This document shows positions 7,770 to 63,314 of a stretch of DNA of 64,000 bases, in pieces. The DNA is from Lytechinus pictus (Eukaryota), in NCBI RefSeq assembly GCF_037042905.1, contig NC_087251.1, forward strand, positions 30,816,001 to 30,880,000. Direction: 5' to 3'. Made by a program: the position numbers and the translations under genes. The notes under the pieces were generated by a model. That model was not told the origin of the DNA. It saw only the letters and a program-made list of their open reading frames with translations, and ran no database searches. Position 1 is the first letter of the stretch; every line of letters begins with the position of its first letter.

Positions 7770-8435
7770 AGTACATCAATGATGTGATGCTCATCCGGCA
7801 TCTTGCAACAAAATTTAACACAATTTTAAATTTCAGCCCAGTTGACACTGTAGTGAATTATATTGGTGACATAAATTGAGGAAACAAAATTTAAATTGAT
7901 GAAGAAATGAGAGAAGTAATTTTTGTGATTTATGAAAAAAAATCTTAAAAATCAGCAGACTGGTAAATAATTTTTTAGTCAAAATTTCTAAATTCTGTGT
8001 AGAACCTTGGTAAAACTCATGTAGCTCTCAGATGGAACAAAAAAAAATCAAAATCGGTCAACAAATAAAGAAGAAGCATTTTATGTGAATTTTGAAAAAT
8101 ATGCATATATTAACATGAAACATTCTCCTACCAGAATTTCGAAATTCTGTGTAGAAATTTGGTGAACCTCATGAAGCTCTACCAGATGGAAGAAAAAAAA
8201 ATCAAATTGGTCAACAAATAAAGAAGAAGCATTTTTTTGTGAATTTCAATAAAAAGGGGAATAAATTAGCAAATTTAAATTTTAATGTTTCAAAATTTTG
8301 TGTAAAGTTTTGAATCCCCCAACTAAAAGCAAACAGAATTGAAATCGGACTTGAAATGACGAAGAAGAAGCACTTTGAAATTGAGTATGGATGACGGACG
8401 CCATGCCACGGCGTATTAAAGCTCATCCGGCCCTA
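7770..8435. repeat. Interspersed element with an internal tandem array of about 165 bp (two full units and one partial)
   Basis: The unit aaattctgtgtagaa...ggtcaacaaataaagaagaagcatttt recurs at about 7990, 8142 and partially 8292. GCTCATCCGGC occurs at both 7789 and 8421. Confidence 0.6.
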
Positions 8436-36525: not shown

Positions 36526-36640
36526 ATGGCTGCTTTCTGCCGTAAATTACGGCATATCCTCTTTTTCGTACTTTTAAACATAATTTGTGGTGGAGCAGAT
36601 TTGCCAGAAAAGGTCCTCTGTGCAGATTCAAAGTGCAAAG
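36526..36640 (+). CDS. MIA3: TANGO1/MIA3 exon 1: signal peptide plus start of the MOTH domain (MAAFCRKLRHILFFVLLNIICGGADLPEKVLCADSKCK)
   Basis: Basic n-region, hydrophobic h-region and small residues, followed by LCADxxC, the hallmark of MIA/OTOR/TANGO1. Donor AAG|GTGAGT, phase 1. Confidence 0.93.
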
Positions 36641-43745: not shown

Positions 43746-43876
43746 CTCCTATATCTAAAGTACAGACGGTGTTCAGTTATAATGCTCCAGACCCCCACTA
43801 CTTGTCTTTTAAGCAGTTTGAAGTTATTCAGGTATTTGCCAAGGATGCGGACAAATCTGGCTTTTGGACAGGAGAG
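43746..43876 (+). CDS. MIA3: TANGO1/MIA3 exon 2: SH3-like core (APISKVQTVFSYNAPDPHYLSFKQFEVIQVFAKDADKSGFWTGE)
   Basis: Acceptor tttttctttcAG and donor GAG|GTAAGG; phase 1-0. The pattern PIS...YxAPD..LSF....I.VF.K....FW.G is that of the MIA family. Confidence 0.94.
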
Positions 43877-44915: not shown

Positions 44916-45014
44916 CTGCTTATGAAACCTGGGAATATTGGTCTCTTCAACAAAGATCATGTGAAAGAGTTAGTTGTATTCAACAAAAGTCCTGCCCAAC
45001 ATGTTGACATTGTG
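44916..45014 (+). CDS. MIA3: TANGO1/MIA3 exon 3: end of the SH3-like domain (LLMKPGNIGLFNKDHVKELVVFNKSPAQHVDIV)
   Basis: Acceptor tttttcttgttatAG and donor GTG|GTACGT; 99 nt, phase 0-0. GLFNKDHVKE corresponds to the family GYFPxxxVxE motif. Confidence 0.9.
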
Positions 45015-45499
45015 GTACGTAAACTGATTTCTGTGCATTGACATACTTGTCAAACTCTGATTTGGAGACAGTTTATTTGCATTTAAACTTGTATATAAAC
45101 CTGTGGAACGGCACATTGTCAGATGAAAATGAAACTGGGGGGGGGGGGGGGGTCAATTAGAATTAAAAAGAGTGGAAAGAGAAGCAATTTATTTGTTCCA
45201 TCAAATTTACTCAATTTTTCTATGACAATCCTCAAATATGCATTATCAAAACGAATCCTGTGAAATCGAAATCTGTTGCGTAATTTGGATTGATTTAGAA
45301 GATTTGGGAATTCTGTAAGACAGCAGAAATTTGTGAATTTTCATTAGAAGACGAAACAATTGTCAAACAAACTTGACATTGAATAATTACTTTGGAAAGC
45401 TAGTGTTGGCGGGCCATGTACATGTGCAGTTTTTCACATTTCTGAATTTTGATTGCCCTGTAGATGTAATGTATGTCTTACTTAGGTGTCAATTTCAAC

Positions 45500-46013
45500 A
45501 TCCCTTTTGTTCCTCCCATATTCACAAAATATTTTAAATTGACTGAAAATGTCCATTCATATTCAACAAGACAAGCTAGTGATTTAGATTAACCTTTATT
45601 ACACTATGAATCTTCTAGAAAATCTGTAGAATCTGCTGGAGTTACGTTATGGAACAAAATACCTAAAGAAATAAAAAGATGCCCATCTCTTGCCTCATTC
45701 AAAAACAAGTTTAAAAATACATTATTGATACCTGTAAAGATTAAAATATGAGGAAATTGCCTTATCACCCACCCACATATTTAGATATATACAGTATATT
45801 CTCTCTTTTATGATTAATATGATTATATTATGGTTTTGGGAGCCAAGCCTTAGTTCAGGCAATTGTCCTGTGCTGGCTCGCCCATATTCTCATATTCTCT
45901 CTTGTAAATGTATTTAATTTTTTGTATCCTTAATTGTATACCGTGCATTCTTTCTATTTGAATTGTATGTTTTTAATGAGAATTTGAAATAAAATCAATG
46001 AAATGAAATGAAA
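45500..46013 (+). mobile_element. 5'-truncated LINE (CR1/L2/Crack-type) 3' end: ORF2 C-terminus, 3'UTR and tail
   Basis: Translates as PPIFTKYFKLTENVHSYSTRQASDLD*PLLHYESSRKSVESAGVTLWNKIPKEIKRCPSLASFKNKFKNTLL, which has the HxYxTR...GxxLWNxLP...SLxxFK pattern and one stop. Ends with AATAAA and a (TGAAA)n tail. Confidence 0.85.
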
Positions 46014-46540
46014 GGTCAATCATATCAATATGATTATTTATCCTTGTAAAAACACTTTAGAAATATGCCACAATCATCTTCAACCATTTTGAAATTTATA
46101 TTTTATGCTCTTTTGTCTCTGTTTCATGCCCTGGTGCTTTAAAAATGAGTTTGACTTGTATCTTTCAAAAGATAAGATAATCATGATATTGATAATGATT
46201 ATGATGATAATAATGATAATATTTATAATAATAATAAAGTTCAAGCCACACAGTTGATGTAAATCAGCATTAATAGAAAGCAATGAACTTATCAAACATA
46301 TATACCCAATCCAAAGATAGATATTAAGGTTGAAAATAATGAATGAATAAAGTAGCGGGTTGAGTAACGAATGTTTAAAAAATATTTTTGGAAATAATTA
46401 ATTGCCTATTAAAGGGAAGGATGTTGATTTAAATAAAAAATATCAACAAATTATTGTACAAAATTTTATCATTCAATAAGTTACTTATATATATTGTTGT
46501 GTTGTTATCCTTTGATTTTTTCCCCTCTATTTGCATAAAG

Positions 46541-48776
46541 GATGTCTTTGACAATAGAGGGATACCACATGGGTTAGGAGATAAAACACCCTCTGAACCT
46601 ACGGCAGAGGAAACAGAACATCTTGAAATAAAAGAAGATAATGGAACAGATGAAGGGCAGTACCTGAGTGGCCAGGAGCAGGGACAGGAGCATAGTGGGG
46701 GAGAACAGGACCTGAGCCATGATAATCCAGACCAGACCAAGGAGCAGAATGGATTGGTACCGGATAGGGACCATGATACAGCACAGCAGGGACAGGAGCA
46801 GAGTGAGGGAGAAAAGGTCCAAGAGCAGTTAGAATCGGAACAGATCCAGGGACAGGAACAGAGCAGAGAAGCCCAGGACCAAGTAGAGGATCAGGACCAC
46901 AATGAATCAGAACAGGAAAAACAACAAAGCAGGGAAGAGCAGGACCAGGGGGAGACTGGAAATCTGGACCAGGACCACATTGAACAAGAACGGGAACAGG
47001 ACCAGGAGATGAATGCACCAGGTAGGTTTAAATTTGTGGCAGATCAACAACAAAGCAAGGAGGAACCTGAATTAGTGAGAAATCATATCAAAGTTGGTGA
47101 TGGACCAAATAATGAAATTGGTGATGGTTTGTCTAATGATAACTTTCATAGAAGTGGAAGAAATGGAATCAAATTTGAACAAAATGCCAAAGTGCTGATT
47201 GATGAAAAATCAGTGGATAATTTTCAAAATGAAAGAAGAGATATTGAAAATAGAGAAAATAATCTAAGAATGGTTGTGCAAAGTGAATCATTGATCATAG
47301 GACATGAGGAGATAAATGGGAATGGACTTGATGTGAATAAAGCAATTCAAGGAACTGTGTCTCAACAGGATAATCTGGATATAAATAAATCAGATGCAAA
47401 ACCTAACTTACAAGCAGATATTTTCCCCACCCAAAGTGATGATTATTCTCAATATCAGTTTGAAAAAGCAAGTTTCGCTAATGACAAACATCAAGATTTA
47501 TCTTTGAAGGAATCAGATATTGTTAATGTACATCTATCAAAAGAAAGCGTTGATTTTACGGAACTTAGACCCAATCCAAAGATAGATATTAAGCTTGAAA
47601 ATACTGAATTATTTAAAAGAGATAAGGATACACCATCTGAAACATACATTCCTCATGATACAGGCAACATAGGGAATGAACAAGAAGAAATTGAAGTTTA
47701 TGACAATTATGGCAAGGAGAAAGAAGATGATGGCGTGGTGTTTTTCCATCGGGAATATGATGAAGAAGAGGAGGAGGATTTTCTTGATGAAATCCTAGAG
47801 GCTAGGGGCATCGAAGACAAACGTATCGAGGAAGAAAAGAACAAACCCAAAAAAAGAAATGCAAAGGTTGCTTCCCATGGAGAGGACTTGGATAAGGGCG
47901 ACTTAGAGGAAGTTGAGAAAAGCCACTACGACGGTCCTGTCAAGAACGAACCTGATGAAGAAAGGATGAGTGTCATCCACAAAGTTCAGCAACTGATTTT
48001 CGATACTCAGAAGCAGGAGAGAGTCATCAAGGAACTGACTGAGAAGGATCCCCCAGGAGGTCCCGAGAGGGGTGATATTATGGGTGTGGAAGAAGCAGCT
48101 TATTATCAGGAAATGGAGAGGGCTATGGAAGAAGAAGAAGAACAAACAGATTTGGACAATGTTGTATTTGAGAGTAGAAGGGAGCAGATGAAGGACCGTA
48201 AAGTAGCTGAAGCCATGGTTGAAGAAACACAAGAAGAAATAATGGTCTCAGATGATGAGGATGAAGAAGAATTCGATAAGGAAGAAATTGAAGAAAAAGA
48301 TTATGATGATAATAAGGAGGAGGATGAAGAAGAAGAAGAGGAGGAGGAGGAAGAAGAGGATGGGCTAAATATACAAGATGGAGAAAATGAAGAGACGAGT
48401 CAAGATAAGAAGAATGAAGATTTAGAATATACCAATATAATAGATCAAACCATCCTACCTGATGAAACCTTGACATTTAATGATAAGGATGACATTGGAA
48501 ATGAGGAATTTATTCAGGAAGGACTTGAGAGTGAAGGTTTGGATGACGGAGATGAAGGGGTATTAGGTTTAGTGGAAAATGATGAAATTGAAGAATGGAT
48601 AATTCATATGGATCAGAATATAAGAGAAGAATTGGACTACCAGAGGGAATTTGATGAAAATTCTAGGGAAGGAAGAGAGATGGAGGCCGTCCAACCATCT
48701 AGGACTCTTGACCCCGAAGGAGATGTGGAACACATTGACAGTGACACTGCTTTTCAGGAGAATATAATGGTCTTCG
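46541..48776 (+). CDS. MIA3: TANGO1/MIA3 exon 4: acidic low-complexity lumenal region, with an alternative internal donor after 47021
   Basis: Lies within the 805-aa ORF. Polypyrimidine tract and AG end at 46540 in phase 0. Donors CAG|GTAGGT (after 47021) and TCG|GTAAGT (after 48776) are both phase 1. E/D/Q-rich, as is typical of the TANGO1 lumenal region. Confidence 0.85.
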
Positions 48777-49942
48777 GTAAGTTGGATGGAAAAGTGCACA
48801 ATGCTGCCATAATATCAAACTGCATACAAGCTGCATGTGTCTCCTCACACTACTCCATTCATATTGCCTAACCTTGGACTTTCATAATCATCTCAACCCC
48901 ATTACACCAACTCAATTGCCAAACTAATACATGCATTATCAATTTAATTATCCGGTAAGTAATGTAAATATCTGTGAATTCTGGACAATATCCCTTTCAA
49001 CAATACATTGATTTATTGATGAAATACTTTGACTTTGCCTTTGTATTGATTTCAATGAGTGGGAAATCCATTTTTTTAACATAATACGTTCTGCTAGCAT
49101 AGAGTAAGTTGCAAAATAAAGTTTGTTTTATCTCAAATATTATACATTATGATGCAGTAGCATGCGCAGGGGGGGGGGTACAGGGGTTCAACCTCCCCTA
49201 AATTTGTTTTGGAACCTTTTTGTACGCAGGGAGGTGGTTACAGGGGTTCAACCCCCCCCTAAACATTTTTTGAAACCCTTTTTTCTTACTCGTCATTTTT
49301 TTGGTCTGAAACAACCTCCAATTTTTTATGAAAACCCCCTTTTTTGCTTGTCAACTTGTCATTCAGCTTGAACCCCCTCCCCTTCAAAAATCCTGCGTAC
49401 AGGGGGACTGTTATGTTGTGAATATACATGATATCAATTGCTATAGTGTTTTTGAATTGAAATATAATTTTTCCTTGTATTCTAAATAATGATTGATACA
49501 TCTGAATAAAATCATGAAAAGTCAACAGTTCACAATTTACAGAAATAAATGAAAACCCCCAAAAGCAATGTACATGTATACACATATATGTTCATTATTA
49601 ATTTAATTGTAAAAATATTATGTTTTACTTGTTGAATGTGCTTTGTGTGTACTGAACTAACCTACCGCAACTGTATGGATTGATGTCGATCATGTGTGCA
49701 TTTTGTTCTTTTGTTTTGTCCAAGTACAAGTAATTGATATTCATGCAATTTGCTTTTGATTGGTAAGATTTAAGTTTGCCTGTTATTTTATTGCTGCTAA
49801 TACTAATCTTTATTTATTGCTTTGTTTTGTTTCTTCTTATTTTGTCTTTCATGCTTGTCATTTTGTTTTGTGGATGTTCCTGTTTGTTTAATGTGTATGC
49901 TTCATCTTCATGTAAATATATACTGCATGCTGTTGCAAGTAG

Positions 49943-52900
49943 ATTTTGGAAAACAATTGGAATCAAGCAAATCAGAAAGTCAGAATGATGAAAATGAGGC
50001 AGAGGAAAATACTATAAATGTAGAAATAGACACTTCTAGCAATAACATAAATATTGAAAATATAGATAAATTTCAACAAGACGTAGACTGCCTTTGGTTC
50101 TATTCACTTCTAGTCCATCAAAGGAAATATCCTGTTTGCCCTATCAGCCACCAGATGATAGAGTTTATAGACACAGACAAATCAATAGAGTACATTTCTA
50201 GCCATGTGTTACGTGATAAACACGTCAATACGAAAGACATTGATAACTTTAGTGAATTGCTATACATTTTTGGCAAGTGTGATGCGTCATCGTTGAAATT
50301 TCAATCAGAGCACAGAGTATGCACAGCTGTGGAATATTTTATCAGAGCCTTTGAGAATGAGGAAAACCCTAATGTGAAGCAGAATCTGGAGCCTGGAAGA
50401 GAAGTCAATCACCCTTTTTGCATGGCCGACCAAAGTTTTGAGTACATGAATGTCATGCAGACAGTTGGTCTTTGCTTTGACAGTGATATTTCTGCGAAGA
50501 AGAGCGTAAACCCACAAACACAAACGAGACCAAAAGACATCAACAATGTTGACTGTATGAAAATAGATTATCAGGATATAATGCAGATATATCTATTTCA
50601 TTCTACGTGTTCTTATTATGGGAAGGATATTGATTCTGAACCATCATGTTTAGAGCCTGTTCAAATAAATAAAGTTTTTACTGAAGATTCAATTGACATT
50701 GATGACAAACAAAGAACAGAGAAAGATAATAAGCTCAAAGCATCTGAGGGAATCATCAAGGTGTCCCCAAATGCTGCTGCCAAAGTTGAGTTTTTGTCTC
50801 TCCTCTTAATGAGTTGGTATCCACATTTAGAAATCACTCCAGCGAATGGGGTTGAAGCAAAGAAGACACCACCAATTGACCACACAAAGACAGAGAAACA
50901 TCCACCTAGAAATGATACGTCCATGGAATTAGATGATCTAGCTGGAAAACCTGAAATTCCTGACAGTCAAACTGACCTTGGTGAGCCAAAAATAGGTAAG
51001 GAATATATGTGGCTGACTTGTCCCAACGAACAATTACTTGAACTTGAATTCTCAAAATTGTTTATGTGCACCATTGATGGAATGGAGAGCACTTCAACGG
51101 TATCTGAAGTGGTAAAAAACTTGGAGAAAGAAAGCAATCATGTTATACAAGATGAAGGATTGCTCTCAGATTCATCACAAATTGCCATTATGCAGAATAA
51201 TAATGGGACAACACCTTGGTCAACTCTGAGTGCCAACAAGTGTCAAGGTAGTGAATGTCCTGAAAATAAAGCTGAAAGAAGAAGCGTTTTTCATGACAAA
51301 CCAAGGATGTCCCAGACCCAAAGCCAGTACTGCAGCCGTCCAATGTACGTTGATCTCTTAGTTCCATCAGGAGGATTGTGTGAAGTTCAGCAAAAGACTT
51401 CAAAACAAGAAGTATTTTACAGAAGCACAGCTTTGTCTTGCAGCAAGCTCAAAAGATACAAAGATATCCTACTAGCTTACAACCAACCAAAGTTTTGCAT
51501 AATTCAGGACTTTTCAATTGCCCCAAAAGTTCCCACTGAGGCTATGTCTGTCAACACTTCAAGCAGACTGGATGGATATCATCATGAATTTGCTGATGCT
51601 TATATGAAAAAGTATTACTGTTTTGGTAGCCAGTCTATTTTACCACCAGAAGTGGATCATCATGAGGACAAATCTGGGTCTATCAATACCATCTTGGTCT
51701 CCAAGAAACTCACTTTACGATGGAATCAGAGCACCTGTAGCAAGATTGATGGATATTTTCATACACTTAATGATAATTTTAGAAAGGAAAAACAGTGTTT
51801 AATTGATGGTGATCAAGTGGATGTAAAATCAAAAGAAAAATCTCAAAAAGTGTGTTCAAAACATTCTCAATCCTGTTTGTATGTAGACTTGTTCATGAAA
51901 ATAATTTCCTTCTACAAGAGGATTTGTTTTATGACAGATGGCCATATGCTGATGCATCGTGAATTCGAAAGCATCTTAATTGAAGCAAACCTAGACTCAA
52001 AGCCCAGTATTAAGACATTCAAACAACCAAATGAAACAATCGAACACAAAATCCTCCATGGGCATGGATCATGCCGTTTAGACCTCTTTGAGGACATTGT
52101 AACATTTCGATCAAAGCAAAGATTTTCCAGGAATGGCATTATCAAGGAAATAGAGATGTGTCCCTTGAGAAAAATTACATTGATGGAAGAAGTTGGTGTT
52201 CCTTCAGAGGCAACTGATGAAAGTATCCTGCATTCTGAGAAACATGAACAGAATGTGCCTGTAGATCTTACAGGAAGTACTCCAGAGATTAGGTTTTCTT
52301 ACAGTCACAATGATTCTTGCTTCCAGGGATCCAAGCTGGATGATTACAAGGCACTCCTCAGTTTTATGTGTACTCCCCTTCAATTCCAATCAGGTCAAGA
52401 TAAACAGTTACCTGAAAAGGAAGGAAATTATTTTGTAGAGATTGAGACTATTCTCTGTCCCATCAACACTTGCTGTCCATTTTCCAAGGTGGATGGATAC
52501 AAGGCACTGTTCAACCTAATGTGTATACCTTTATACCTCAAATCAGCTGAAAATTCAAGTGAAGGAAAGATTTTAAAAGAGAGTGAGGTTCACCAAAGTT
52601 ATACCAATCCTTTGCTCCATTGCTCAAAGATAGATGAATACAAAACACTCTTCATCCTCATGACAGATACTCCTGTACAACTGCAATTGTCTTCAGATTC
52701 GCATTTCCCAACTAATCTAGGAATAAGTTTAGATGTGACTAGGTCTGCTCTCAGTTCAATCTCTTGTTGTCAGTGCCCTAAGATGGATGAATATAAGACA
52801 CTGTTTGAAATAAAGAAACACGCTCCTCCTGACTTCCAATTGACCCAAGCCACAGCATTCCCTCCAAAGGAAAGAAAGGATTTGATAGAACTGAAGGTTT

Positions 52901-55900
52901 CTCACAGTCTTCCCCTCCAATCGGATTCAGATGAACAGTTTCCAAATGACAAAGGAAAGGGTTTGGAAGAGATAGTAGTTTCTTACAGTCCAAGTAACTC
53001 TTACTGTCTGTGCTCAAAGATTGATGAATATAAGGCACTATTCACCCTTAAAACTTGTGTGCCTCTACACAGCCAGTCATCTTCAGATGAACAGCTCCCA
53101 ACTGACAGAGGAAAGGGTTTGGAAGAGATCGAGGTTTTTCACAGTCACAGAAACTCCTGCCGTCCGTACTCTAAGATGGATAAATATAAGGCACTGTTTG
53201 AAATTATGAAACATACTCCTCATGACTTCCAATCTACCCAATCCATAACTTTTCCTTTAAAGGAAGGAAAGGATTTGATAGAACTGAAGGTCTCTCGCAG
53301 TCCCATCAAACCTTGCCAATATTCAAAGGTGGATGGATATAAGGCACTGTTTAACCTTGCAGCTTGTGATCCTCTACCCCTCCAATGGGATTCAGATGAA
53401 CAGTTTCTAAATGACAAAGGAAAGGGTTTGGAAGAGATAGTGGTATCTAACAGTCCAACTAACTCTTACTGTCTGTCATCAAAGATGGATGAATATAAAG
53501 CAATGTTTAAACTTACAGTTTGTGATTCTCTTCACCTCCAACCAACTCCAGTTGCACAGTCCTCAACTGACAAAGGAAAGGGTTTCAAAGTGATTGGGGT
53601 TTTTCGAAGTCACAATGCCTCTTGTTGCCAGTGCTACAAATTAGATGAATACAAAACATTGTTCGACCATACAATTTGTTCTTCAGCCCACATTCAATCA
53701 GCTAAAGATTCTCAATATCTTACAATCAAAGGAAAGGGTTCGGAGGAGATTGAGGTTTCTCAAAGTTCCACCAAATCTTGCAGCCACCTATCTAAGATAG
53801 ATGAATATGAAGCAATGTTTTACCCTGCAACTTGTTCTTCAGTACCGCTCCAATTAGCTGAGGGCTCACAATATCTTAAAGTCAAAGAAAATGCATCAGA
53901 GGAGACTGAAGTTTCAGAGAGTCCCACCAAGTCTTGTCACCATTGTTCCAATATGGAAGAATACAAGGAACTGTTTCATCCTACAACTTGTTCTTCAGCA
54001 GACATGCAATTAGGTAAGGGCTTACAATATCTCACAATCAAAGGAAATGGTTCTGAGGAGATGGAGGTGTTTATAAGTTTCTATCAACTCTTGAATAACC
54101 ACTTTTGCCTCTGTAACCACTCTGGAAATCTAACCAAATGGACGTCTTCTTGTCAGACCGATCTATTCATGCTGCTTGTATTTTCTGTAAGTCATTGTAT
54201 TCCAGATGTGTTCCCATCAGATTTACAGCCTTGCTCAAAACTGGAAAGTACCCATGAACACTTCTCAAAGCAAAATAACCAATCAAAATCTAAAAGCTCG
54301 GAATATGAAATTTACCTTTACAAAGTGATTTTGAAAAAAGAAGATGTCTGTCTTCAAGTAGAGTTTCAGAACCATAGCTGTACTGCTCTTGACCTTTTGA
54401 ATCATGATGATTTACAAACAGAGAAAGGAAATGTACATTTTGAATATGAGATTTACAGACTCCTCATGGAATCTGAGAAATTGTGTTCTGTGAAACAATT
54501 TGATGATTCATGCTCATTGTTGGAAGGATTTGATAGAGTATCTAGAGAGGAAAGTCATGATCTATTGAGACCCGATGGAGGATATTATGATCTGCTCATC
54601 TATAGATCCGTCATGATGCAAGAAGATGTATGTCTTCCAGACAAGTGTTTTGACAAGCGTAGTACAGCTCTTTACTATGTGAAAACTAGTGATTCAAAAA
54701 GTATAAAGGAATTAGATAGGACCGATTATGAACTGTACAGATATTTTATGTCAGCTAAGAAATGGTGCATCGTGGAACAATTCATAGACTCTCAGTCATG
54801 CTCCGTCTTTGAAATTTTTGATGGACAGACTTCAGTGGTAAATTCTAGAGTACTGAAACCTTACGACCTTCTCATCTATAAAGCAATATTGAACCAAGAA
54901 AATGTATGTCTTGCAGTCAAGAATCCACATCAGTACTGCACAATTCTCGATGTCTTTGACATGTGTGATTCTCAGATTCCAGATGGCAGCAAATATGATC
55001 TCTATAGGAACCTGATGGTCGCCAGTCAGTTCTGCTTTATTGAGGAATCTATGACTGACATGTGTCCCTTAATTCAATATCTTGACATTAAATCTATTCC
55101 AGAAGTAGACATGATTTCGATCAAACCCACAACTCATGATGATATTGGTGGAATACTTTATTATCAATTAATGACAAACATTGATTGGTGCATCAAGGAT
55201 GAGAACTTTTTTACTGAAAGATACTGTCTGCCTGAAGATCATTTCTCAAATACTTCTGGAATGCAAGAAAGGGAGGCATTGATATTTAACAAGAGAGCAT
55301 CTGGATCACTGTTATTTCAGTTGTTGATGACTTGTAACGGGATGAGCTTCCAAGAAGACCATTCTACAGCAGGCTGTACTTGTGATATCGTCAGTTATTT
55401 CTGCTCAGGCAGCAAAGACGATGAGAAAAAAGATGTTCGGGAAACAGGCTTTCAACGGAGGCCATCTAATCTTGCACTGTACTTTAGCCTATTAACAGGA
55501 TCAAGATTTTGTCTCGCCGATGATGAAAAGCTGCATACATCTTCAAAGATAAGTCTAATCTTTGATCACTTCATTCAAGATAACAAAGAACCGAATCAGC
55601 CTGAATCTTGTGAGGATGGAACATACCATGGCATTCTGGACTTGTATAAAGATCTGATGATGGGCCAACAAATGTGCTTTGTAAATATAGATGAACATTC
55701 ATGTGTGGCAATACATCAGTTTGTAGGCAATGTAACAGAGACTGCTGCAAGTGGTGCATTCAAATCTTCCAGTGATCCTAAACAGTATGTTACATTCTGT
55801 GCTCTTGCACAAGGGTTCCCAATTTCATTCCCAAATGATAAACAATCGTTTTCGTACTGCACTTGGTTCGATTTCAACCTTTCATCCAATCTGGCTTCTG

Positions 55901-56359
55901 CATTGTCAGGAAAAAGTGCAACTCAAAATGACACAACTCTTGTCATCAGCAATTATGAAGAAATGATTATGTCTCCTTGGAAGTGCATGGTGTATGTTGA
56001 CAAAATGGCTAACTGCATGTGTCATGATGCCCATCCTCATGATAAATATCTTGAAAAAAAATCACAACTCAATGAGAAATCCTACAGTGCTTCTAAACCA
56101 AAGAGAAATAAAAAAAAGAGACAGCGACAGAGAAGTGACATTAAGTTTGAAAATAATTTGGTCAAATTGAAGTCCATGATTGACTCCTTCAGCCAGTGCA
56201 GACTGCTTCATGAATCTGACTACAGAAGTGTCTGCTTTTTCTTTAGTCATCGTGTGTCCCAAATCATGGAAAACTCTGTAGTGTATACTAGCCCTCTTAT
56301 TGACACCACTCGCAAGAGGAGGTCAGTTTATTCTCTTCAAGTTGATTATGTTTCAAGTG
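49943..56359 (+). CDS. MIA3: Giant Cys-rich repeat-coding exon (about 2139 aa), probably a cassette exon of TANGO1/MIA3
   Basis: Lies within the uninterrupted 2200-codon ORF. Tandem acceptor cAAG-TAG (49937-49942, both phase 1) and donor GTG|GTAAGT (phase 1). The length of 6417 nt is a multiple of 3, and the exon sits on the same strand between two phase-1 TANGO1 junctions. Coding status is near certain; inclusion in TANGO1 mRNA is inferred. Confidence 0.72.
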
Positions 56360-59132
56360 GTAAGTCACCAAACTTTCATTGCACCACTACATGTATGCTA
56401 GTAGAAAGGTTATTGTTTATTTAATAGATTAGGTATACATGTAGATATGATCACAAATATCCTTACGAGTGATTAAAGTTCTTGTAAATCTCTCACAAAT
56501 ATGTATGGATTCTGGAGTTTCAGGAATTTCATTAAGTCCTATGAAGTTTATATTGTCAATATTCATTTTAAAGAGTATCAGAAGAAAGTTAAGTCCATGT
56601 GTTCTGAGTTATTTTGCCATAGGTTCAAGATGATCATATAAATGTGCAGGTTATTACTCAATGAAATCTGAAGAATTTTGTCCCACTTTGACCTCTAAAT
56701 GGTAGTAGTGTATTCCCATAGTCTGAAAATTCTGTGTCAACAATTCCTTTTGTGAGGAATCTTTGGAGCATTTTGGCCTGGACAGAATAGGGGTTTTGTA
56801 AAATTTTTTAATTGTAATCTTTCATCTTACAACAACATTTATGTCTTTCAAGGTCGTTGAGGCATTGTCATTGTAAATCCTTATTCCAAAGTCATTTTTG
56901 GGGGACTCCAAGAACTTGAGGCATACTTATCATCATTGTAGGAATTTGGTGACCCATTTAGAATTTCTTCTGACCTTAGATATTTCTTAAAGCTTGAATA
57001 GTCTTACGATGTTCAAAAGACGTTAGTACACTGCCTTGTGATATTGTAAAGCCCATTTCACACTTGGTGGAGCAACTACGTACAACCGTTGTGATTGTGT
57101 GCAACATATATTGTGACCAAACGGTCGCAAGAGCGATTGTGAGAGCCCTTTACGGCATTCTTAAAATCTTGAAGTGCAATTTGAATTGACTGCAACTAAT
57201 GCAGATCTTTGATCTCAAGATTCGATCTCCCTAATAAAACTTCTTTAAAAAGCCAATCCAAAATTTTTATAACACATTGTTCACTCAGTATTTACAGCCA
57301 TTCGTAAGGGTATTTGTGATTGAGGAAAATGACATCCCAGACGTACATGTAGGATACCTTCATTTTCTCCTCTTCTTCCCACCCCTTTATTTTAGACAGA
57401 TCTAGTTGAATAGTTAAACATCTAGTTGAATAGAACACTTACATATCAAAGGTATCTTAATATATGCTCTGTTACAAAATGTAATTTACACTGATACATT
57501 GTGAACTATACATTAATAATAAAAAGTGAAAAGCAATATTACATTGGAAAAAAAAAATATCCATGCTCATATCAGACAGGAAGTCATAGTTAGAAACGTG
57601 AAGGAAGGAACTGCATGTAAATAAAAAACGTATCCATTTGCATCATATTACTACTACAGTATAATGTGGAAGTCTGCAATTAGTTAAATCCTCTTATCAG
57701 TTCATACATGTAGACTCGTTTTAAGACAACAAAAAAACTATTTCAGAGTGCTACTATTCATCAAAACTAGATCAGATCTATCCAGTAGTGATTGACCATC
57801 ACAAAGCAGCAGAAACGTTAATTAACTTTGATTAGTGATTTTGTAACTCTGCATCCATTTACATACAGATATTAATCACACATATTCTGCATATTTTAAC
57901 TATATTTCAAGCAAAAAAATTCAATTGGTATCTGATTTTCATTTTCATTTTTAAAGAACATTGATAAATGATGTGTGTTATAAAGAATCAATTAAAACTC
58001 TTTCTTGATCATTTTTAATTTGAAATTGAAGATATTAAATCTAGCATTCAGCTAATAAGCATAACACTAATGGTCAGCTTTGCAATGAATAAAGGTCATT
58101 GCTTAGCCCATAATCTATTTATCCAATGGGTCATCATATATGTGGGACTAACCAAGGTTTAATGAGGGTAATTCAATGTACATATTCTCATGGAAGGAGG
58201 AATGTCAAGTGGATCGATCTTTCATTGCAAAAGCCTGTTAATAACTTTCTGGCCACATGATAGCCAAGGAAAATATGTACAATGTAATCTGAGCCCTCGT
58301 GCTTGCATTACACGTCTTTAACAAGTAGATTATTAAGGTTGAAACGATCATTTGAACTTTAATGAATCTTTCAATAAAGAATTTAATCCTAGTTTCTCTA
58401 TGAATATGAAATTCAGATACCTTAAAAAAATGATTCGGAAAGTAGAAAACCCAGTCACATTTACTTTAGGTTTTATTGATTTACAGTGATATTCAACTTC
58501 ATACTGTCTTAAAAATCTTAAAAATACACTTTAATCACTATGACTTACTTAAATACATGGCATGATACAATGTGAACCTGCTACAAATGTAGATAACAGA
58601 TCTCCCTTTTCATCATTGATATACAGTAGACTAAACTTCTAAAAATTTGTTACAAAAGCATGCCTTAATTGCTCATGTGTATGTGATTGAAAGGGCGATA
58701 TGCATGGCTGTTATGTCTATATGTTCCTTATTGATGTACTTACGTATGCAAATAGCATGGTCTTAATTTAATGTTCTTGTTTAATGTATAAGAGTATGGG
58801 CAACATGAGGCAAAGTAATTGATTCCTATCAGCTTAGTGTGTGCATGAGTGATACATATATTCAAGCTGGTGATATTTCTAACAAAAATTTAAAAACGTT
58901 TCTTCAAAAAGGGTACCTCTCAAAATACCCCTCAGAGGCATGTGGATACTAAATTGAATGTTTGATGGTTGCTATATTTGTATGTTGCAGCTGCATCTGT
59001 ATTTAGACTTGATTGCTGGCATGACACATACTGAGAGAATGCAGTCTTCAACAAAGAATGAAACTGGGGATAAGGACTTTAACAAGGGGAATAATAATAT
59101 GACAGAACATAATTATAGAATAGAGGTAACCG

Positions 59133-59350
59133 GGGGCCTGTTACACAAAGCTTAGCAATGATCGTAGAGCATTTTTCTATGATTGATTCCATTGAGTACA
59201 ATGTACAATCAATCATGAAAATCAAGCATACGATCAATCGCTAACCTTTGTGTTACGGGACCCAGGACCCCCATATCACAAAGCTTAGCAATTGATCGCA
59301 TCGATTATTGTGTATGATCAATCATAAAAATCAGCACAATCAAATCAATC
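59133..59350. mobile_element. Palindromic Harbinger-like MITE (59133-59262) followed by a partial second copy
   Basis: GGGGCCTGTTACACAAAGCTTAGCAATGATCGTA ... TACGATCAATCGCTAACCTTTGTGTTACGGGACC. CACAAAGCTTAGCAAT is repeated at about 59277. Confidence 0.75.
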
Positions 59351-60163
59351 ATGTTTATGTTTTGAGGGTCCAGTTTTGAAAATTGGTAATGAATAATGAA
59401 ATTACAAAGTTAAGAATGGTTGGAAGAGTCCTCGTTTACTGTTAATGGCAAGTCTTAAATTTATTGTCAGTCACAGGGTTCGACTTCATACATGTAGGTT
59501 GCCCGTGGGCATTTGGCTCCCCAAATCCTTGTCAAGTTGTGACATGCTCCTTAAAAATGTTTGAATAAGCTCATCTGACCCCTTAAGTTTTTCTTGCAAA
59601 TTATATGATAAAGTTGAATACACATTGTGAAATATAGTTTAATTTCAAGCAATATGTGTGTGAAGTGTGTGTAAAACATATTGAAACATTTTTCTTATGC
59701 AAAAATTTGCTATTTTTTTAAACAACATATCTAGTCCAAGGCATGCCATAGACAGTATATTGAGACCTCAAAGATTCATAGCTCTTATTTTGTAACCAAT
59801 TAATATTGAACTTGCAATTAATTTTATGTATTCTCTTCTCTTATCTAATTGATAGTGAATTTTCCCCAGGGTGTCGCTCTCCTTTATCTTAATAGCATGG
59901 AATATAGATACTTGTATGCTGTAATGTGATAGAGTGCAGGAAATATATAATCCAAGCATGTGTGTAGCACAATGTATATTATAATAAAATGCCAGGCTTA
60001 GAATGAGCTCATTTGACTTTTAGAATTGCTTTAATATTTAGGGAATGATATATGAATATTAATGAAATTGGAAGTGCATGAAAAAAGATGTATTTTACTC
60101 TCCTACATGTACTGCGACTTCGCCTGGGACTGCTGCTATTTATACTTTCTTTAAGTATTCTAA

Positions 60164-60164
<1 letters not shown>

Positions 60165-60245
<81 letters not shown>

Positions 60246-60300
60246 TTACTACTACTACTTCTACTTCTACTACTTCTACTACTTATACTGCTTCTACTAC
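60165..60300. repeat. (CTA)n microsatellite
   Basis: Long perfect CTA run that decays at its 3' end. Confidence 0.98.
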
Positions 60301-60653
60301 TTATTAATCTAATATCTATCTACCAGGTCTTCATCTACTGCAAGAAATAATATTACAGCTTATAAGTGATCTGAAAATAAATTATTTTTAAATTATTTAA
60401 TAGTAAAGAAATATGATAATTTTTCAATTACATGTTATTCAAACATATAAGTATATTTTCACTATGTCGTCTTTGTCATGCATGCAATCATTAATCCATT
60501 CCAACATACAAATCATTCATATATATGTACATGTACATTGTTATTTAACCACATTCATTGTACTTGTAAAATTGTATTTGTCTCCAGAAAAGTAAGTTGG
60601 ATCATATTTTATCAATATTTATCAAAATTATAACATACTTAAGTGTACATGTA

Positions 60654-61261
60654 CAGTTGAGGCCGAAAGTTTACATACACCCATGGAATTTAGTGAAATT
60701 TGTTTGTTTGCCAAACATCGTAAAATTTACTATATCTTCAGAAATATAAATACTACTATGATGAATTTGATGTCAAATGAAAGAGTATATAAAGCTCTTT
60801 TAGGTGGAATTTTTTTGAGAAAAAAAATATATATTTGTGCCAAATGTATTCTTTTGTTTGTTATTATATTTTCAAACATTGTTTCATAGAACTATATAAA
60901 TGTTAAATTTATGGTTTATATTCCTTTTCTATCATGATATGTCACCACTGAATAAAAAGTTTCATCTGAAATGTTTGTGTTGAGAAGTAACTAGCACAAA
61001 TATTAAATTTTTTGGTCAAGTTTTTATTTTTGATTTGACTAAAATATGAAAAAAAAATTGGGGAAAAATGATACTTAAATATTTTTCAGCTCCTGATGAC
61101 AAAGCAATGTGATGAAGGGGCATGACATACTCATCTGTTTGATATCAAATTTGTCATGATAGCACAAATATTTTATAAGATACAGTGAATTCTATGTTGC
61201 TTCGCAAGTGTCAACTTTTCTTTGAATTACCTGGGTGTATGTAAACTTCTGGCCTCAACTG
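60654..61261. mobile_element. Tc1-like non-autonomous element (608 bp)
   Basis: TA|CAGTTGAGGCCGAAAGTTTACATACACCCA ... TGGGTGTATGTAAACTTCTGGCCTCAACTG|TA: 30-bp TIR and TA TSD. Confidence 0.93.
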
Positions 61262-61666
61262 TATTGTTACACTATGCTTGATCTGTATTATTAATCAAAT
61301 TGTACAAATGATATGGTTTTAATTTATTACTAAATTATATTTCCTAATTTTCCATTATTTATTTCCATAGTTATTTATGGGATTGACATGTCTTACAAAT
61401 TGAATAACTGCCTCTTGTAGAAAGTATTTATGAAGTCAGGAGAATCAAAATTGTATTATTGATTTGCTTAATAGGAAAAGTTTTATACATTGTAATTAAG
61501 AATGAAATATTAAATTCAACTATGATCAATTCTTTTCATGGATATATTTAGAGTTTGATACATAATAGAATAATGATCAGTGTAGTAAAGTTTAAATGAA
61601 TTTTTATTGTGATTTTTTATAGAAATTAGAACATTTTGTTGTATTTTGTTTTCTTTTCTTAATCAG

Positions 61667-63009
61667 ATGAAGGAAAAGAACCAGAGGGTACAGGAAACTC
61701 AGAGGAACATGTAGATGACGATGACACACAGAAAGAAAATGAAGAAGAAATAGAAGAAAAAACACAGGACTCCGAAACAAGCCAAAAGAATGAAGAGGAA
61801 GATGTGATTGGGGAAGCTGTGGAAACGGATGAAGTGGAGGATAGTGAAAGGAAGCATGATATTGAGGAAGACATTGTGAAGCAAAATGATGAGATTCAGC
61901 CAGATTCTATTCAGCCAAGCCCGTCATTTGAAGTAATAGATGGCACCACTATCTATTTGAATGATTTAGAACCTACACCTTTGCCTGGAGAACCTGCTAG
62001 CGAGAAATACAATACATTTAACATCCATTCTAGCGACATTGTAGATGTGCCCAAAAAAGAAGATAGTGATGAAAGCGATGTTGGTCCTCCATCTAGTTTT
62101 TCTTTCAAAAGTGAGGATGAGATTGATCCTGAAGCTTACAGGAACATCCTGAACAAACTCCATGCCAACCCTGAACTCCGGGACAAAGAAGGTGCCATTC
62201 AGCAGGAGATGCTGAAGATCCTCCGTGACCCTGAACTGAAGAAGAACTTACTTATCAAGGCCCATGAACCTAAAAGGGACATCTTGTCACCTTTCAGATC
62301 GCAACATCCAGCACCTGGGGATGCTGTGCACATGGATCAGGCACAGGGTCACGTGGACGATAATGTTGATCTACAGAAACTGGATGCCATGCAAGATGAA
62401 TCTGTGCCACTTGACGATTCAGATACAGCTATACCCCCATTAGCTACGGGACCTAATGTTGTAAAAGGAAGACCAAGTAGCCCTCTTGATAAAGATGAGG
62501 AAGATATCAATTTTGTAGATCCATTAGCTCTCTTACAGGAAGACACAGAAGAACCTCCTCTGTCCATTAATGAAAAGATTGATATCGCAGAAGAGATCCT
62601 GAAAACCAAGGACTTCTCAAGTGAAAACCTTCAACCACCGGTGCCGCCTGACGATCCCTATGACCCTGTCAAGCTTGCAGCCAAATTGAACACGGTCAAA
62701 GGCTCAAATCCTGCTGTCTTTGGGGATCCGGCCCAAGAGGTTTTTAACGATGATCCAGCTCTGTCGGCTCTCGAGGACCAGAACGATCCAGTGGAGCAGG
62801 AGAGCCAAGAACCGTCATTGAATCATTCCCATGTCACAATGCCCTCAGACACAGAACAGGTAGAAGATAAAGTAGAAACCATTGATGATGAAGAAGTTCC
62901 TTCTCCACACTTAGATTCCCATCTACCACCTGGCGTGGATACCAGACCGAATGTTGAGGAACTGGCTGACAGCAGCTATGGGGAGCCTGGATTACGCACC
63001 AGCACACGG
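61667..63009 (+). CDS. MIA3: TANGO1/MIA3 next lumenal exon (DEGKEPEGTGNSEE...GLRTSTR), acidic and Pro-rich
   Basis: Strong acceptor ttttgttttcttttcttaatcAG in phase 1. The frame is open for 1343 nt and includes the 432-aa ORF. Donor CGG|GTGAGT, phase 0. Confidence 0.85.
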
Positions 63010-63103
63010 GTGAGTTTATTGAAATATCTCAGATGGGATTGGCCTATACCTGTTTCAAAGATCACGCCTCTTCATAATTACATGGGAACAGAGGTTTTTT
63101 AGC

Positions 63104-63314
63104 TGGGCAATTTCATGAAATAATCAACTGTTATGTATGACCAACCCTCATTTTAGTCTATTCTTACTTCACTTTGCAAATGCTCAAGCCAGGATAATTT
63201 TAGAGTATTATTACAAATGTTCATGTGAATTTAGAAAACAGAGCCAGTCCAAATTATAAAGGTTCTGCATATAGTGGGTTGGACATATGTACATATACAT
63301 TATGGAATTGCCCA
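63104..63314. mobile_element. Small Harbinger-like MITE
   Basis: Inverted termini TGGGCAATTTCAT ... ATGGAATTGCCCA. Confidence 0.6.

Follow-up and report, generated by a model that had tools for sequence, protein, structure and literature searches.

A giant cysteine-rich exon in the TANGO1 gene of the sea urchin Lytechinus pictus, with evidence suggesting its use as an alternative last exon

The window examined here is a 64,000-nt stretch of the 812-Mb Lytechinus pictus assembly (positions 30,816,001-30,880,000, + strand) that carries lumenal exons of the sea-urchin TANGO1 gene, and between two of these lies a further exon of 6417 nt (window positions 49943 to 56359; coordinates below are those of the window, and features are on the + strand, unless stated otherwise) with 2139 whole codons, 87 of them for cysteine (Cys). 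The reading that we somewhat favour is that this giant exon is a composite alternative exon, mostly used as a last exon, giving a soluble protein of 2435 amino acids (aa). According to this proposal, the internal donor of TANGO1 exon 4 at 47021 would be spliced in frame to 49943 in some samples, the GTAAGT donor at 56359 would mostly be left unused, the frame would run for 21 more codons to a stop at 56422-56424 and the transcript would end some 1.1-1.5 kb beyond that stop. The product would combine the signal peptide of TANGO1 and its SH3/MOTH-like domain for cargo binding with an acidic stretch of about 160 residues and a tail of 2160 aa that includes 89 Cys, and because it would lack a transmembrane helix, a coiled coil and the proline-rich Sec23-binding region, it is predicted to be a soluble protein of the lumen of the endoplasmic reticulum (ER) or of the secretory pathway and not an organiser of ER exit sites. 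A preliminary description of this DNA had proposed a membrane-anchored ‘mega-TANGO1’; its view of a skippable TANGO1 exon has stood, and the exon is real, varies between samples and belongs to a new family, whereas for the form of the product the evidence favours a soluble giant isoform.

The open reading frame (ORF) that holds the exon is free of stops from 49807 to 56424 (+), a run of 2205 codons where about 2200 had been estimated on first inspection. Shuffling the window 100 times gave open frames no longer than 207 codons (mean 132), base composition puts the probability of 2205 codons in a row without a stop at about 10^-67.5, and the other two + frames over the same stretch contain 124 and 221 stops. 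The length of the exon is divisible by three and both of its ends are phase 1, with an acceptor at ttgcaagtag/ATTTTG and a donor at CAAGTG/gtaagt, 21 codons upstream of the stop (about 20 had been expected); all four junctions are phase-compatible, and both joins by which the exon could be used as a cassette (47021>49943 with 56359>61667, and 48776>49943) translate without a stop. Its 87 Cys, which agree with the first count by hand, make up 4.1% of its codons, whereas the flanking lumenal exons have none: the adjacent exon at 61667-63018 has 0 Cys in 450 aa, and translating 46433-48871 gives 3 Cys, none of them inside the exon limits 46541-48776.

Transcript evidence was gathered from four sequencing runs placed on 45200-63300, two as Logan contigs (X2 and X3) and two as stranded raw RNA reads (X6 and X7), the latter sampled at about 6%. 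Canonical joints that pass over the giant exon (47018>61664 and 48775>61666) recur in three of the four runs (X2, X3 and X7), showing that it is normally skipped and bearing out the earlier expectation that it is skippable. Depth on the giant exon was 13-35 in X2, compared to 13-16 on the next exon, while in X6 and X7 it was about 0, with 1-7x on the flanking exons; of the tissue-specific use that had been proposed, what holds is that use varies between samples. The upstream junction was seen in one run of the four: record 3 of the X2 contigs (3059 nt, depth 13.3) joins 26 nt of exon 4 by a GT..AG splice to 49941 and spans 49941-52973, so that this joint (47019>49941, equivalent to 47021>49943) splices the exon in frame from an upstream lumenal TANGO1 exon, as had been predicted.

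At the other end of the exon the evidence differs from what was first proposed. The downstream junction 56359>61667, which membrane-anchored ‘mega-TANGO1’ requires, was found in none of the four runs, X2 with its exon depth of 13-35 included, although contigs can drop rare forms. Instead, contigs cross the donor unspliced and run on (X2 55934-57110 and 57093-57912; X3 53412-57121 and 57092-57547), so that the read-through tail at 56360..56424 (GKSPNFHCTTTCMLVERLLFI and a stop codon) is used when the GTAAGT donor is left unspliced. Depth in X2 was 17.8 and 10.5 as far as 57,883 and fell to 0.69 and 0 in the next non-repeat bins, and in X3 the next non-repeat bins beyond the contig end gave 0.24 and 0.16. 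A putative 3' untranslated region (UTR) of the terminal-exon form can thus be drawn at 56425..57912 from the depth, the contig ends and three AATAAA hexamers, one at 57233 and two others (57518 and 57620) just upstream of the contig ends at 57547 (X3) and 57912 (X2), consistent with polyadenylation in this region. The two skipping junctions in X2 (47018>61664 at depth 12 and 48775>61666 at depth 25.9) already account for the depth of 13-16 on the next exon. Together, the unspliced passage across the donor and the drop in depth beyond it point to a terminal exon and to a product without the transmembrane and cytosolic half of TANGO1.

Several points weigh against this reading. No run listed as carrying the exon is recorded as RNA; the library kind of X2 and X3 is not on file, and both were treated as RNA-derived from their GT..AG splice joints; the 5' junction rests on one contig from one run, with 26 nt on its short side; no poly(A)-tailed read was seen in the four runs, and runs of A in the genome adjoin the contig ends at 57547 and 57912, which are possibly assembly breaks or priming artefacts. 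In X3, a contig at 48747-51824 (depth 6.4) reaches from exon 4 to the giant exon with the intron between them retained, and in this intron-retaining form the TANGO1 frame stops at 48869-48871, so that the giant ORF is then not read from the TANGO1 start. The donor at 56359 is a perfect GTAAGT consensus, and NCBI models from two annotation releases (P0004, P0006 and P0009) join 56359 to 61667, the evidence that supports them not being visible. At the spot equivalent to the donor, relatives of the exon have the residues G-K-S and G-E-W, whose codons would be compatible with a GT[AG]AGT donor, as judged from protein only. Finally, residue-level constraint on the exon is weak, because the 24 scored exon differences between X2 and the window comprise 19 non-synonymous and 5 synonymous ones, a ratio per site (pN/pS) of about 0.95 if a 4:1 site ratio is assumed and with 71 other differences over the whole stretch left unscored.

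The donor, the models and the residues in relatives (P0011 and P0018, introduced below) would all fit a cassette exon that is spliced at both ends and lengthens the lumenal arm of full-length, membrane-anchored TANGO1, as found at ER exit sites, by about 2140 residues rich in Cys. In its favour, too, are the phase-1 ends, the two joins that stay open and the observed 5' junction to exon 4, and the three NCBI models read VDYVSS/DEGKEPEG across the join and then continue into the transmembrane, coiled-coil and proline-rich parts. We nevertheless regard cassette use as unlikely, as its downstream joint is missing from all four runs while contigs cross the donor and continue for 1.5 kb (rare variants can drop from contigs, and a minor cassette form may exist), and as the NCBI models begin at an in-frame ATG upstream of the acceptor, without signal peptide or SH3 exons, and so are incomplete as a lumenal mega-TANGO1. 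A further internal phase-1 donor, TTAG/gtaagg at 54013, lies at the end of the K-type repeat array described below, and the older NCBI models splice from it and so leave out all of the exon's second half; X2, X3, X6 and X7 list no such joint.

The intron-retaining X3 contig, which has the same depth as the exon, bears more on the idea of a nested or semi-independent gene, in which transcription starts in the upstream intron or that intron is retained, translation begins at an internal ATG (49891, 50422 or 54169), the link to TANGO1 is positional only and the product has neither signal peptide nor SH3 domain from TANGO1. It would fit with this that all five exon-containing NCBI models start at internal ATGs (49891 in one release; 50422 and 54169 in the older one, with the extra internal donor after 54013), that depth in X2 climbs from 13 at the 5' end of the exon to 27-35 at its 3' end, and that the relatives were called as stand-alone ORFs, though by a caller that ignores introns. 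An in-frame start is, for its part, the choice expected of a gene predictor on an intron-retaining transcript like that of X3. The X2 contig shows the in-frame splice from exon 4, and in that run the upstream intron has a depth of about 3 as opposed to 13; the start of the open frame lies in pyrimidine-rich sequence, no more than 45 codons upstream of the acceptor; and no candidate start precedes a signal peptide, yet Cys are the best-conserved residues, which would be unusual for a cytosolic protein. On these grounds a nested gene seems to us quite improbable.

The terminal-exon form depends on the upstream exons for its signal peptide and cargo-binding head, and the identity of the host gene was established by a tblastn search with P0008, a Lytechinus variegatus protein named by its source database ‘transport and Golgi organization protein 1 homolog isoform X4’, to which the exons in the window are 79-100% identical. 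Residues 44-100 of P0008 pass the Pfam SH3_2 model (25.4 bits against a cutoff of 21.8) and its N-terminus matches the MIA structure 1i1j (E 2.6e-4), and the exons between 36526 and 45014 are 90-100% identical to it, so that the signal peptide and lumenal SH3-like domain expected of TANGO1/MIA3 are both present. The membrane segment, coiled coils and proline-rich region are visible by eye in P0006 and P0008 and are encoded downstream of the window; a Pfam search gave no specific family above its cutoff for them. With exon limits set from GT/AG sites plus the open frame, exon 1 (36526..36640; residues 1-39 of P0008, 89.7% identity) has the start codon and the signal peptide (MAAFCRKLRHILFFVLLNIICGG...), which is the most hydrophobic 19-residue window of the isoform; exon 2 (43746..43876), placed by the same tblastn search, has the first part of the SH3/MOTH-like domain, corresponding to SH3_2 residues 44-100 of the ortholog, and exon 3 (44916..45014; 100% identity to residues 85-115) has its end. 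A proximal acidic part of exon 4 (46541..47021), defined by splice joints and site context, reaches to the internal phase-1 donor CACCAG/gtaggt. The remainder of the long-form exon 4 (47022..48776; joints 47018>47661 and 48775>61666, and translation) is acidic and Cys-free and ends at the donor TCTTCG/gtaagt. The next constitutive lumenal exon (61667..63018), placed by its match to P0008 and by joints into 61664/61666, is likewise acidic, and is the acceptor of both the canonical splices and the predicted cassette splice.

When these exons are joined to the giant exon, the coding sequence is open from the ATG at 36526 in exon 1 to the stop at 56424, giving a conceptual product of 2435 aa in which no window beyond the signal peptide exceeds a hydrophobicity of 1.53. 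This conceptual product of the X2-type transcript would have the make-up of a soluble MOTH protein, with a signal peptide and an SH3-like domain and no anchor. Neither the L. pictus ORF nor the longest of its relatives, P0018, opens with a signal peptide of its own, which, taken with the conserved Cys, fits delivery to an oxidising lumen by the upstream exons, where the Cys of the tail might form disulfide bonds. The protein may act as a multivalent binder or matrix-like component tied to its collagen-binding domain.

Relatives of the exon were sought at the protein level. A word-indexed protein search matched three ENA proteins besides the L. pictus models, among them P0011 (863 aa), which is 43% identical overall and 55.1% over 602 aligned columns and keeps 19 of 26 aligned L. 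pictus Cys. A HMMER search with the last 803 residues gave six proteins at E<=0.001, including P0017 at 27% identity, and the cluster of P0017 includes P0018, an ORF of 3716 aa with 26.1% identity over 632 columns in which 22 of 30 aligned Cys are kept. Relatives therefore retain about 73% of the giant-exon Cys, which are its best-kept residues, and the order of motifs is common to L. pictus, P0011 and P0018. In L. pictus and P0018 the landmarks run from an N-terminal ..CLW....C through A.EFLSLL..SW.PH, ‘C.K.DGYK.LF’ units and ‘EIY..LMT...C........C’ units to a KPKRK polybasic stretch and then a C-terminal ‘..N..[VM][YF]TNP’. The giant exon had been called lineage-specific, and relatives at 43% and 27% identity in ENA contigs mean that this needs qualifying; the exon is older than the species L. 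pictus. No homologue was found among 500 candidate proteins of 3860-5000 aa, and no named homologue from another urchin turned up in the protein searches. L. variegatus isoform X4, the only annotated isoform of that species examined, is without the giant exon, which says nothing on the presence of the exon in that genome.

Within L. pictus, the older NCBI models, which come from another haplotype or assembly, differ at 1.8-2.2% of exon residues, compared to 2.4% in the next lumenal exon and 0.8% in the coiled-coil plus proline-rich part, and the frame is open in two haplotypes with 98% amino-acid identity. The frame and the Cys are kept while most residues drift, as would be expected of a repeat-rich, largely unstructured secretory-pathway protein. 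An untranslated relic, whose frame lies in a long 3'UTR or a retained intron and is open through recent origin or chance (or, in a variant of the idea, is the ORF of a mobile element), would account for the pN/pS value of the 24 scored differences, for the failure of AlphaFold2 to find a fold (below) and for the absence of family matches. Such a frame is, however, expected by chance only at about 10^-67, it is open in both haplotypes, the relative at 27% identity has an ORF of 3716 aa that keeps its Cys, and the exon is single-copy and hence no dispersed transposon or viral ORF; the relic explanation is very improbable and already close to refuted. The retention of some 73% of the Cys in relatives argues that the exon is translated, and we take the giant exon to be, in all likelihood, a genuine and fast-evolving coding exon of L. 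pictus TANGO1.

The closer relative occurs in two versions, one a continuous ORF of 863 aa (P0011, on a contig of 15,993 nt) and the other in five ORF pieces (P0012-P0016, on a contig of 12,251 nt), and the latter has more K-type units and apparent frameshifts. The two versions reflect either polymorphism in copy number, compounded by errors of sequencing, or the decay of one allele.

Searched with the giant exon at DNA and protein level, the 812-Mb genome yielded only the locus itself and internal repeats, showing that it is single-copy, and in the reciprocal search the distant relative P0017 matched only the giant ORF in the L. pictus genome. The dispersed copies that would have marked a transposon or viral ORF were thus absent, and that origin was ruled out by the single copy together with the lack of any Pfam family. 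Pfam gave no families for the giant ORF (P0001) or for P0011 and three sub-cutoff matches for P0018, a phmmer search of PDB sequences gave no matches at E<=1 for the giant exon and the ESM Atlas gave no usable match for it. The module thus matched no described domain in these searches, which suggest that the exon encodes a Cys-rich repeat family without described relatives. Literature searches, judged by title and abstract with supplements outside their scope, found no paper describing the exon. The sequence itself already figures in automatic NCBI annotation under the name ‘uncharacterized protein’: XP_063958542 (‘uncharacterized protein LOC129264571 isoform X2’) matches the frame at 100% identity along 100% of the query. 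The models of this L. pictus locus (XP_063958541/2 and XP_054758443/4/5) contain this exact exon; unlike the transcript proposed here, they have in-frame starts and no SH3 exons, assume the 56359>61667 join and lack the 47021>49943 junction.

The tail is made of about 35-40 units of around 50 aa, each a short amphipathic helix followed or bracketed by conserved Cys, and it grows by tandem duplication; the linkers between units have no predicted fold in the models. Two unit types were distinguished. The K-type array (52303..54072; residues 788-1377 of the giant part) has 11 full and one half tandem 52-aa units with the consensus S..SC...SK.DEYKALF....C...Q......GKGLEEIEV, identified by a tandem-repeat (TRF) period of 156 nt, hidden Markov model matches of 65-93 bits and alignments. 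The Y-type modules (54133..56286), recognised by regular expression, alignment and periodic Cys spacing, number at least 10 and have diverged from one another; each has a helix motif (..LY..LM) and, after it, C-x8-13-C, with C21 invariant and C32 present in at least 90% of units; two further Y-like units near the N-terminus (50218-50688) bring the Y-type total to at least 12. K-type units number 11.5 in L. pictus and 3 in P0011, with more in the fragmented ORFs P0012 and P0013 on another contig, while P0018 has 12 Y-type matches of at least 50 bits plus an N-terminal array of its own, and it appears that different lineages expanded different unit types. A common origin of the K-type and Y-type units is not supported: in the hhalign alignment the helices, and likewise the Cys after them, fall in register, yet the probability is 2.9% and the E 0.016.

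The giant part is net acidic (306 D+E against 233 K+R) and its maximum Kyte-Doolittle score of 1.53 leaves no transmembrane-grade hydrophobic window. It also includes a conserved polybasic stretch, KPKRNKKKRQRQR (56095..56133), whose KPKRK... run is found in P0011 and P0018 too, and a second basic site, RKRR, within 56308-56325. N-glycosylation sequons number 19, compared to 14.9 +/- 3.5 in shuffles, and are uninformative. AlphaFold2 gave no confident fold for the C-terminal 803 aa (alignment of 8 rows; mean predicted local distance difference test score, pLDDT, 25.8) or for two K-type units (mean pLDDT 43.2), with a low-confidence hint of one helix per K unit on the SK.DEYKALF motif; models of such low pLDDT are too poor for comparison by fold.

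In immunoglobulin mu, a 5' splice site competes with a nearby poly(A) site, splicing giving the membrane form and polyadenylation a soluble form with a short unique tail, and the terminal-exon reading of the urchin exon follows the same composite-exon switch logic. The genes are unrelated, and in the urchin the reads show the read-through arm only, the spliced arm occurring only in predicted models. MIA and otoraplin are proteins of about 100-130 aa. They are secreted and built on the same SH3-derived cargo-binding fold as the TANGO1 lumenal head, and are vertebrate-specific paralogous genes (PMC10119292), whereas the urchin form would be an isoform of 20 times their size that carries the ‘intermediate’ SH3-like domain of invertebrates. 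The same source describes invertebrates as having only TANGO1, with a lumenal domain intermediate between SH3 and MOTH that binds collagen IV directly (PMC10119292). At the vertebrate MIA2/cTAGE5/TALI locus, as described by Santos et al. (2016, PMC4862334), an SH3-bearing lumenal part (MIA2 on its own) and a membrane/cytosolic part are expressed separately and fused (TALI), and we count this as a family precedent for a separate lumenal SH3-bearing product. In both systems a signal peptide plus SH3-like lumenal part would stand alone or be fused according to transcript processing; in the urchin the choice is apparently made within one composite exon of a single invertebrate TANGO1 gene, and the predicted soluble form adds a 2160-aa Cys-rich repeat tail without a MIA2 counterpart. 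As with vertebrate TANGO1-long and TANGO1-short, the choice of isoform would decide between the lumenal cargo-binding part and the cytosolic machinery; TANGO1-short is without the lumenal part, and the urchin terminal-exon form would be its mirror image, having the lumenal part only.

Beyond these comparisons, a more speculative proposal, which we hold only tentatively and think unlikely as it stands, is that echinoid TANGO1 has a dual output from the one exon: use of the donor would give a longer lumenal arm of the ER-exit-site organiser, and non-use the 2435-aa soluble protein with a collagen-binding head and about 40 fast-evolving Cys/helix modules. This soluble form could be a bulky component of a secreted matrix or coat that brings along an export-receptor domain, or a decoy in the lumen that adjusts which cargo TANGO1 captures. 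TANGO1 is a central organiser of bulky-cargo export from the ER, and if the terminal-exon reading is true, RNA processing of a single gene can separate a soluble head from a membrane organiser, and the lumenal side of the pathway gains a new repeat family. The exon also illustrates clearly how a very long ORF can stay open while its residues drift, with repeat expansion that differs between lineages. As L. pictus is a breedable and editable laboratory species, junction-specific knock-outs and tagging are realistic.

Other features of the locus were also recorded. Donor 47021 starts four different splices (47018/9 to 47661, 49941, 61664 and 62913). Exon 4 holds a frame-keeping internal intron of 642 nt (47022-47663; joint 47018>47661 in X2, X3 and X6), and an in-frame splice runs from 47021 to an acceptor at 62915 inside the next exon (joint 47019>62913 in X3 and X7); since the first segment is removable and the second splice occurs, the length of the disordered lumenal linker in urchin TANGO1 varies considerably. 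Outside the window, the 3' exons that encode the second coiled coil and proline-rich part of TANGO1 are present twice on the same chromosome, about 49 kb apart, at positions 30,935,217-30,943,996 and 30,886,265-30,894,473, with 87-98% protein identity, and NCBI 524-aa ‘TANGO1 homolog’ models (P0007) differ slightly from the main gene. Either part of the gene has been duplicated in tandem, to give something like a short gene of the cTAGE5 kind, or the assembly carries the segment twice.

Twelve other ORFs of the window were scanned against Pfam, with no matches. In the intron downstream of the giant exon, summed contig depth reaches an extreme of about 7,800-7,900 at 59092-59695 and 280-1,280 further on (60300-61507), and all four runs show many loose ends, inverted joints and reads continuing into unlike sequence there; a dispersed, transcribed repeat in the TANGO1 intron is the probable cause. 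The same intron has an (ACT)n microsatellite of 46 triplets at 90-93% match (60164-60301).

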